DNA of 64,000 bases from Escherichia coli (GTDB taxonomy: Bacteria > Pseudomonadota > Gammaproteobacteria > Enterobacterales > Enterobacteriaceae): the NCBI RefSeq assembly GCF_041248615.1, contig NZ_CP158426.1; one strand, 5' to 3'. Shown here in pieces: positions 45,906 through 46,550 of this stretch. The notes under the pieces were generated by a model. The model worked only from the letters and a program-made list of their open reading frames with translations, was not told the origin of the DNA and searched no databases. Numbering within the stretch: the first letter of the stretch is position 1; each line of letters opens with the position of its first letter. Position numbers and translations under genes: made by a program.

Positions 45906-46550
45906 TCAGCCGGTGCGCAGACCGGCTTCGGTGAAGGTGTATTCGTTGATGAGAAGGGCCTCATCCACAGGGGCATCTGAGGTCAGCCTGTTGTGCTCGT
46001 TTTCCAGTTGACGGTACAGCCATAAGGCCAGGTCGCGCAGGGCTTCGCTGACAGCGGCTTCCGCATCTGTTGTCATAGTCTGACCAGTCGGACTGTTCCG
46101 GGTAACAGTGATATCCATGCTGTACGGATGGCAGTAGCGTCCCCGGCGGTGGATTTCAGCCTGCAGTTGCCAGAAGTTACGCTTCTGCACCGCCTGCAGG
46201 GCATCCGCGATACGATGGAGTTCATGCTCCTGTGGGGCATACTTCCGGATTATCCGGGCTGTCGCCGGCTGCCAGTGCCAGCGTCCTTCAAAACAGGCTC
46301 CGTCCCCCTGGCTGCAGCATCCGCTGAACCAGATGCACGGCTCTTCCATAAACCTGCCGTTGCTGAGCCGGAAAACGCGCTGGCGGAGGTCAATTCCGAA
46401 AATGTCACAGACCGCCCTGAAGTCCTCATACACGTTTTCATACCAGTTGCTGTCAGCATGATGCTGACGGTACCCGTCGCGGGCTTTTCCCCGTACCGGG
46501 CAGGAAAGTTCATCCAGCGTATACACTGTGATGGTGATAATGCTGCTCAT
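45906..46550 (-). CDS. Hypothetical protein (214 aa) between DUF987 and antitoxin genes
   Basis: Clean 214-aa ORF, Cys/Trp/His-rich central segment; no family recognised. Confidence 0.5.
   Translation of the reverse strand: MSSIITITVYTLDELSCPVRGKARDGYRQHHADSNWYENVYEDFRAVCDIFGIDLRQRVFRLSNGRFMEEPCIWFSGCCSQGDGACFEGRWHWQPATARIIRKYAPQEHELHRIADALQAVQKRNFWQLQAEIHRRGRYCHPYSMDITVTRNSPTGQTMTTDAEAAVSEALRDLALWLYRQLENEHNRLTSDAPVDEALLINEYTFTEAGLRTG

Follow-up and report, generated by a model that had tools for sequence, protein, structure and literature searches.

In a 64 000 nt stretch of Escherichia coli DNA (contig NZ_CP158426.1, assembly GCF_041248615.1), hereafter called the window, a gene of 214 codons (45906-46550, minus strand) lies between a DUF987 gene and cbeA, the antitoxin gene of the CbtA/CbeA toxin-antitoxin (TA) pair. 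The question raised by this locus is what the gene encodes and whether it belongs to that pair, as supposed in an earlier note on the same DNA, which had proposed an extra module component or an accessory factor. As set out below, the 214-aa gene is not a demonstrated part of the CbtA/CbeA pair. The reading that we favour, to which we assign a probability of roughly 45 %, is that the protein is an independent factor of mobile-element entry or establishment, possibly with an anti-defence role, encoded by a conserved accessory gene of a block shared by many mobile elements.

The clean open reading frame (ORF) described in the earlier note was recovered as such: it starts with ATG, encodes 214 aa and has Pfam-named neighbours on both sides. 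Upstream lies a DUF987 gene of the YeeT/YpjJ/YkfH type (46569-46790, minus strand; PF06174, E 1e-39) and downstream, after a 49-nt spacer (45857-45905), cbeA, which encodes a YeeU-family type IV antitoxin and starts with GTG (45488-45856, minus strand, RefSeq coordinates; PF06154, E 9e-52). Reading of the sequence placed the DUF987 stop codon 18 nt from the ATG, with a Shine-Dalgarno-like AAGGGGA in this spacer, 5 nt before the start codon (46556-46562, minus strand). When 5426 complete E. coli genomes were searched by megablast, DNA similar to the gene was found in 2045 of them, at 2955 places and with at most eight per genome, and 1942 genomes carried it at a coverage of at least 80 %. The order DUF987-gene-cbeA was contiguous in 1928 of these 1942. 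The identical 214-aa protein was present on at least 1000 contigs, and a full HMMER scan delimited a family of 2753 clusters at 50 % identity, with E below 1e-10 for 1598. The ratio of non-synonymous to synonymous substitution rates (dN/dS) was 0.13-0.44 when E. coli copies were compared with one another and 0.11-0.23 across genera, comparisons from which a fusion allele (see below) was left out as being out of register; the window copy gave somewhat raised values against other E. coli copies (0.29-0.44). Given the contigs with the identical protein, the number of clusters and dN/dS values well under 1, the ORF is a genuine gene and not a chance frame, and it is under purifying selection.

The family is already catalogued and still uncharacterised, with thousands of database entries. 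Recent RefSeq annotations label genes with 90-93 % identical DNA 'DUF8835 domain-containing protein', and membership of DUF8835 rests on these labels, the copy of Pfam that was searched being without a DUF8835 model. The protein also matched the PHROG family phrog_5162 (E 6.4e-31, residues 3-212 against profile positions 3-197 of 201). A literature search for the name 'DUF8835' found nothing, and where complete E. coli genomes annotate the gene, as about 2000 of them do, the names are only placeholders or unsupported. The earlier note had allowed that the gene might prove to be annotated as a matter of routine in these islands, with a known function. The first half of this turned out to be correct, with annotation in about 2000 genomes, and the second did not, the names given being placeholders or unsupported; DUF8835 and phrog_5162 are both function-unknown labels, in agreement with the note, which had assigned no function.

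In the K-12 islands CP4-44, CP4-57 and CP4-6 the antitoxin gene directly follows the DUF987 gene, and the 214-aa gene is lacking at all three. This order had been given in the earlier note for CP4-44 and CP4-57; it was borne out and extends to CP4-6, and the gene is additional relative to K-12, as claimed there. The 73-nt yeeT-cbeA spacer of CP4-44 (L002:5040-5112) includes 21 nt that match window positions 46536-46556 with 20/21 identical, a piece that runs from the final base of the Shine-Dalgarno-like site across the spacer and through codon 5 of the 214-aa gene. The CP4-44 spacer also retains the 23 nt that precede cbeA (window 45857-45879). Since the first codons of the gene are retained, its absence at CP4-44 is explained by an internal deletion. 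A different scar was found in strain AR_0137, whose spacer contains the 3'-terminal ~100 nt of the gene along with pre-cbeA sequence (149 nt aligned, 92 % identity); no remnant of the gene was found in CP4-57 or CP4-6. These junctions indicate that the gene-less state is a deletion derivative that arose in at least two independent forms (CP4-44 and AR_0137), the 214-aa gene having been lost from CP4-44 of K-12 by deletion.

The distribution of the DUF8835 gene is largely independent of CbtA/CbeA. Within E. coli, cbeA-like DNA was found at 13148 places in 4859 genomes, so that, with 2955 places for the 214-aa gene, about one in five cbeA loci carries it and about 78 % do not. Outside E. coli, a scan of one genome per species gave 542 matches, of which the best 80 were used for locus counts; 79 of these 80 were alphaproteobacterial and one was from Salmonella. 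The alphaproteobacterial proteins, encoded on plasmids and integrated elements, were 50-59 % identical to the window protein, and CbeA, CbtA or DUF987 was found within 7 kb at none of the 79 loci. Homologues were also present in lytic phages of Caulobacter, Brevundimonas, Pseudomonas, Acinetobacter, Erythrobacter and others, where they lie within long arrays of small unannotated genes, several of them inside terminal repeats; these loci, too, carry the family without CbtA/CbeA. The protein of Salmonella enterica subsp. diarizonae was 64 % identical to an alphaproteobacterial one as compared with 57 % to the E. coli window protein, and this closer relationship fits horizontal movement between bacterial classes. 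One phage record, Acinetobacter phage vB_AbaM_CP14 (L009, OP585105), names its homologue 'RNA polymerase binding protein'. We rejected this label as not credible because the same record gives T4 replication names (sliding clamp, clamp loader, DNA polymerase) to ORFs of 46-73 aa.

What recurs around the gene is a block of other genes. Its shared content comprises genes for a ParB-like protein, single-stranded DNA-binding protein (SSB), DUF932, ArdB/KlcA, RadC-JAB and DUF8835, then variable cargo, sometimes a TA pair, and finally a DNA methyltransferase or a methyltransferase-helicase. On the Phaeobacter plasmid pP97_c the order is SSB, DUF932, two RadC genes, DUF6878, DUF6915 and a 139-aa gene, followed by DUF8835, MbcA/RES, a methyltransferase-helicase and Toprim; a Shinella conjugative plasmid carries ParB-like, antirestriction, DUF932, DUF8835, methyltransferase, strawberry-notch helicase and Toprim genes, and metagenomic contigs showed the same kind of block. 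At about half of the alphaproteobacterial loci DUF8835 runs straight (0-165 nt) into the gene for a strawberry-notch methyltransferase-helicase of ~1450 aa, with no toxin gene. At other loci (among L011-L090, L004 and L007) varied small cargo lies between the two, including several types of TA pair: MbcA/RES, PIN/MazE and types identified by eye as TacAT, HigBA, VapBC and AbiE, besides DUF4326 and DUF736, likewise read by eye. In the window the order on the minus strand is DUF932 (47906-48724; PF06067, E 6e-52), an ArdB/KlcA-type antirestriction gene (47345-47824; PF03230, E 2e-37), a RadC-like JAB gene (46853-47329; PF04002, E 1e-44), DUF987, the 214-aa gene, CbeA, CbtA, DUF5983 and DUF4942. 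Same-strand blocks with SSB, antirestriction, DUF932, RadC and methyltransferase genes thus occur on the Phaeobacter and Shinella plasmids and in islands of E. coli, Klebsiella and Salmonella, and gene order shows DUF8835 to be a conserved accessory gene of such a block across proteobacterial conjugative plasmids, integrated elements and chromosomal relics such as the E. coli islands of CP4 type.

In leading regions of conjugative elements, anti-defence genes, orphan methyltransferases, SSBs and TA genes are over-represented, and a third of the most prevalent families there are uncharacterised (PMC11541004). A factor of entry or establishment, as favoured here, is in keeping with this gene content. 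On this reading, the 214-aa protein would act alone in the cytoplasm soon after entry of the element. Its target would be a conserved host or defence component, bound or modified by way of the almost invariant S-Q81-G-D83-G loop and of D43, Y139 and H141. The protein would not be an antitoxin, nor would CbtA/CbeA need it; co-transcription with cbeA-cbtA in enterobacteria would arise because the pair occupies the variable slot beside the gene.

Members of the family are single-domain proteins of 200-220 aa, and AlphaFold2, run with a 98-sequence alignment, returned a model of the 214-aa protein with a predicted local distance difference test (pLDDT) score of 95.8 and a predicted template modelling (pTM) score of 0.88, in which an antiparallel sheet of ~8 strands packs against long helices. 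We take the ORF to be a functional gene that encodes a soluble protein with one alpha+beta domain. The 98-member alignment showed the motifs (F/Y)xFDELS, FSGFxSQGDGA(C/S)FEG, APxDxxLHxIA, GxYxH, W-x-Y-x-x-L and, at the C-terminus, ANEYxFTxxG. Among 16 diverse members of 31-59 % identity, phage proteins included, Q81 was invariant and D43, D83, Y139 and H141 were at least 90 % conserved. Judged against both alignments, the window protein retains nearly all positions conserved at 90 % or more, the exception being A19, which is V. The peptide quoted in the earlier note is present, CIWFSGCCSQGDGACFEGRWHW being residues 72-93, and the quoted segment is the most conserved motif of the family (FSGFxSQGDGA[CS]FEG). 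Its description as Cys/Trp/His-rich did not hold as a family feature: C78 is usually F, C79 is usually W, S or C, and C86 alternates with S. A metal site formed by the cysteine cluster was accordingly rejected, the cysteines not being conserved across the family.

Searches for relatives of assigned function gave little. Scans of the protein against Pfam (E <=0.01) and NCBIfam had no match, sequence searches of the PDB, whether started from the protein or from the family profile, found nothing relevant, and a search of BFVD returned uncharacterised phage proteins only. When the 98 members were scanned against Pfam at E <=1 the hits were scattered noise, the commonest being DUF4518 in eight members with a best E of 0.002, and there were no antitoxin families among the 25 Pfam families most often matched.

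Several results weigh against a factor of entry or establishment. No homology to any characterised protein was found that would support a specific activity, a PADLOC scan of the 214-aa protein had no match, and its AlphaFold model had no convincing match among solved PDB structures, with none that was anti-defence. Two of the 16 diverse members have another residue in place of D83, making a catalytic role of the loop less likely. On pP97_c the block lies ~20 kb from the relaxase gene with cargo between them, any leading-region placement on this plasmid being putative, and the neighbours at the 80 loci came from a crude ORF caller, the cargo types having been identified by eye. Lastly, within Enterobacterales the DUF8835 gene was never seen apart from cbeA, and in two genera it parts the antitoxin gene from the toxin gene, a relation closer than mere neighbourhood.

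This last point leads to an alternative that we consider unlikely, namely that in Enterobacterales the 214-aa protein is a working third partner of CbtA/CbeA (a modulator, a sensor or a second neutraliser), acting with CbeA on CbtA or on the cytoskeletal targets of the toxin. Invariable adjacency to cbeA, together with the contiguous stretch in 1928 of 1942 E. coli genomes, speaks for it, and so does gene order in related genera. The E. coli order is DUF987, 214-aa gene, CbeA, CbtA, and in Klebsiella michiganensis (L091-L093:6610-7996) and S. diarizonae (L065:6633-8086) it is DUF987, CbeA, DUF8835, CbtA; the gene thus stands directly upstream of cbtA in the latter two, with cbeA intervening in E. 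coli, and in S. diarizonae the cbeA stop overlaps the DUF8835 ATG by 4 nt. The slot beside the gene also holds other TA pairs in other elements. As a separate observation, the S. diarizonae locus contains a second, degenerate CbeA-like ORF at 6260-6661.

Fusion of the two reading frames likewise counts in favour of a partnership. The spacer between the 214-aa gene and cbeA contains 34 nt that are missing from short-spacer and fusion variants; the deletion, seen by alignment of E. coli GCA_002226135 (L101:4612-4682) with window positions 45857-45912, has its junction in 455 complete genomes. Combined with a change of TGA to TTA it yields a continuous DUF8835-CbeA frame of 343 aa, and such stop-loss frames persist, the exact junction occurring in 98 genomes. 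In RefSeq the fused frame is divided into a pseudogene and an independent cbeA that begins at a GTG of its own, and because this cbeA is kept inside the frame the fusion is not necessarily a functional product. An AlphaFold model of the natural fusion reached a pTM of 0.62, with linker residues 218-274 below a pLDDT of 50 and no confident packing of the domains. The model was judged by pLDDT and pTM with an alignment that was shallow in its CbeA part, and is weak negative evidence. In an hhalign comparison the DUF8835 family and CbeA had no profile similarity (probability 0.2 %), and the 214-aa protein had no match to the CbeA_antitoxin family of Pfam (PF06154).

Further evidence against a third partner comes from loci that lack the gene. 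About 78 % of the cbeA-like places in E. coli are without it, as are all three K-12 loci, whose CbtA/CbeA pairs are those characterised by experiment, and the family mostly occurs without CbtA/CbeA. The earlier proposal of an extra module component or accessory factor therefore stands only in part: adjacency to cbeA in Enterobacterales and the fusion frames in ~98 genomes are in its favour, and against it are the gene-less majority of cbeA loci, the 79 of 79 alphaproteobacterial loci without CbtA/CbeA and the lack of similarity to CbeA.

In Alphaproteobacteria the gene has another close neighbour. At 67 of 69 loci the stop of an upstream gene for a protein of ~138 aa overlaps the DUF8835 start by 8 nt, and the two are translationally coupled there. 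The 138-aa protein is acidic and conserved (MADYFTHFSCLLDVG...CSRPRLDAFGGGAH; its ends are also given as MADYFTHFSCLLDVG...CSRPRLDAFGGGAHVIDL, as seen at L007:9589-10008 and at 67 further alphaproteobacterial loci such as L013:2312-2725 and L018:6598-7005), with C10, C96, H109, D13 and D112 invariant. It has 2663 database relatives, nearly all named 'hypothetical', one UniRef entry being labelled 'VOC domain-containing protein'; it had no Pfam match and no detectable relative in the window. The overlap, the invariant residues and the VOC label speak for a DUF8835 protein that is one subunit of a two-protein enzyme or binding complex with a small upstream partner. In Alphaproteobacteria this partner would be the 138-aa protein; in enterobacteria, where the upstream gaps are likewise tiny (18 or 13 nt, or an overlap of 4 nt), it would be DUF987 or CbeA. 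We regard this as distinctly unlikely. The phage homologues have no conserved upstream partner, and the 138-aa protein, besides lacking a counterpart in the window, resembles neither DUF987 nor CbeA (probability 0.2 % for the latter), on which ground it was rejected as a homologue of either.

The state of the island in the window bears on yet another explanation, that in E. coli the gene has no function and is carried along in a decaying island by linkage alone. Beyond cbeA the block continues on the minus strand with the toxin gene cbtA (45024-45398; PF06755, E 5e-62), a 141-aa ORF with a DUF5983 domain at its N-terminus (DUF5983_N; 44602-45027) and a DUF4942 gene at the island end beside ynjB (43732-44517), which is frameshifted according to RefSeq. 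The ORF at 44602-45027 consists of an N-terminal DUF5983 fragment in frame with the DUF957 gene of RefSeq, which annotates a truncated DUF5983 pseudogene plus DUF957, and the end of this island copy (43732-45027) is decaying. Such decayed neighbours are in keeping with a passenger, as are the V in the window copy where at least 90 % of members have A, its somewhat raised dN/dS (0.29-0.44) and the deletion of the gene more than once in other islands. Against this, some 1940 genomes carry an intact gene, in as many as eight copies per genome, dN/dS is clearly below 1, and the window copy keeps nearly all conserved positions, which makes a passenger very unlikely.

The protein was also compared with known systems. 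Like CbeA/YeeU, the type IV antitoxin of PF06154, it is encoded in the same operon by an adjacent gene, and the two reading frames are fused in some strains; it differs in having no sequence or profile similarity, twice the size of CbeA and another predicted fold. With named antitoxins it has in common only a database name, 'antitoxin', and, in Klebsiella and Salmonella, a position directly upstream of the toxin gene cbtA; it is a globular domain of 214 aa and not a small DNA-binding antitoxin. No support was found for the 'antitoxin' label, which has no Pfam or NCBIfam match behind it, and the name 'toxin-antitoxin stability system' in the literature refers to other proteins, e.g. RelB. Tripartite TA systems include third components such as SecB-like chaperones and PaaR-type regulators. 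The 214-aa gene resembles these in being a third gene inside a TA operon in Klebsiella and S. diarizonae, and differs in that there is no sequence similarity, in that DUF8835 is dispensable in most cbeA loci and in that the family lies mostly outside such operons. The anti-defence proteins ArdA, ArdB/KlcA and Ocr, from leading regions and phage early regions, share its kind of neighbourhood (ArdB/KlcA, SSB, DUF932, RadC and orphan methyltransferases, and in phages small genes without annotation). The 214-aa protein had no match to the ArdB/KlcA profile (PF03230), which its neighbour at 47345-47824 did match. A DNA mimic of the ArdA/Ocr type was rejected as well: with an isoelectric point of 5.9 and 29 Asp+Glu against 24 Lys+Arg the protein is not strongly acidic, and there was no PDB fold match.

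Other features of the window were recorded around the block. Just upstream of the DUF932 gene, the first of the block, a terminator scan found a terminator-like hairpin of 12 pairs (7 G-C) followed by a T run (48802-48773, minus strand), where a distinct transcription unit, running from DUF932 towards cbtA, may begin. In and beside the 214-aa gene, scans for Rfam families, notable repeats and promoters and terminators were negative for the first two and predicted no promoter on the minus strand. The ORF list contains a frame of 162 aa (45488-45976, minus strand) overlapping the gene at its 3' end, with the CbeA domain starting at residue 59; this overlap is due to the longest-ORF rule, the RefSeq start of cbeA being the GTG at 45856. 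In K-12, the neighbour genes yfjX and yfjY of CP4-57 (L099:2920-3869) are now lfgA and lfgB in RefSeq. LfgB, a RadC-like protein, is reported to be a protease with the antitoxin MqsA as its substrate (PMC10846083), which may bear on the role of the RadC-like gene of the block; the literature on LfgA/LfgB covers these K-12 neighbour genes only.

Over the 645-nt gene and over the 1303-nt stretch from DUF987 to cbeA, the window DNA is 100 % identical to that of E. coli ECCNB12-2, which was isolated from a chicken, and the 214-aa protein is 100 % identical to WP_045146861.1 in NZ_CP033635. Further along the window (~52000-64000) lie an inovirus Gp2-family gene, a ProQ/FinO pseudogene, a YadA-like adhesin gene and several insertion sequence (IS) remnants, and in NZ_CP033635 the aerobactin cluster (iucABCD-iutA) is found just past the point where the window ends (record 2620000-2648500). 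The Gp2 gene, the adhesin gene, the IS remnants and the aerobactin cluster show that an avian strain carries here, beside ynjB, a pathogenicity island of mosaic make-up.

A bolder proposal combines several of these elements: DUF8835 would found a family of effectors with a new fold for the entry of conjugative elements and phages, serving anti-defence or host takeover, acting as a third partner of cbeA-cbtA in enterobacteria and paired with a small, possibly VOC-like protein in Alphaproteobacteria. We hold this to be doubtful, and the more restricted reading of an independent factor of entry or establishment is the one that we retain.

For the biology of E. coli, about a third of complete genomes contain at least one locus with a conserved 214-aa gene in the cbeA-cbtA operon. 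The CbtA/CbeA system was defined in K-12; the operon layout of that strain is not the sole one and was, at CP4-44, produced by loss of the 214-aa gene, and the two-gene layout of K-12 should not be assumed for these modules in clinical or avian strains. A mobile-element protein that lacks an assigned function is in itself nothing unexpected. For the family, DUF8835 emerges as a very abundant uncharacterised group that rides with antirestriction genes on conjugative elements and occurs in phages, and its confidently predicted fold without a solved relative makes it a reasonable candidate for screens of anti-defence or establishment functions.

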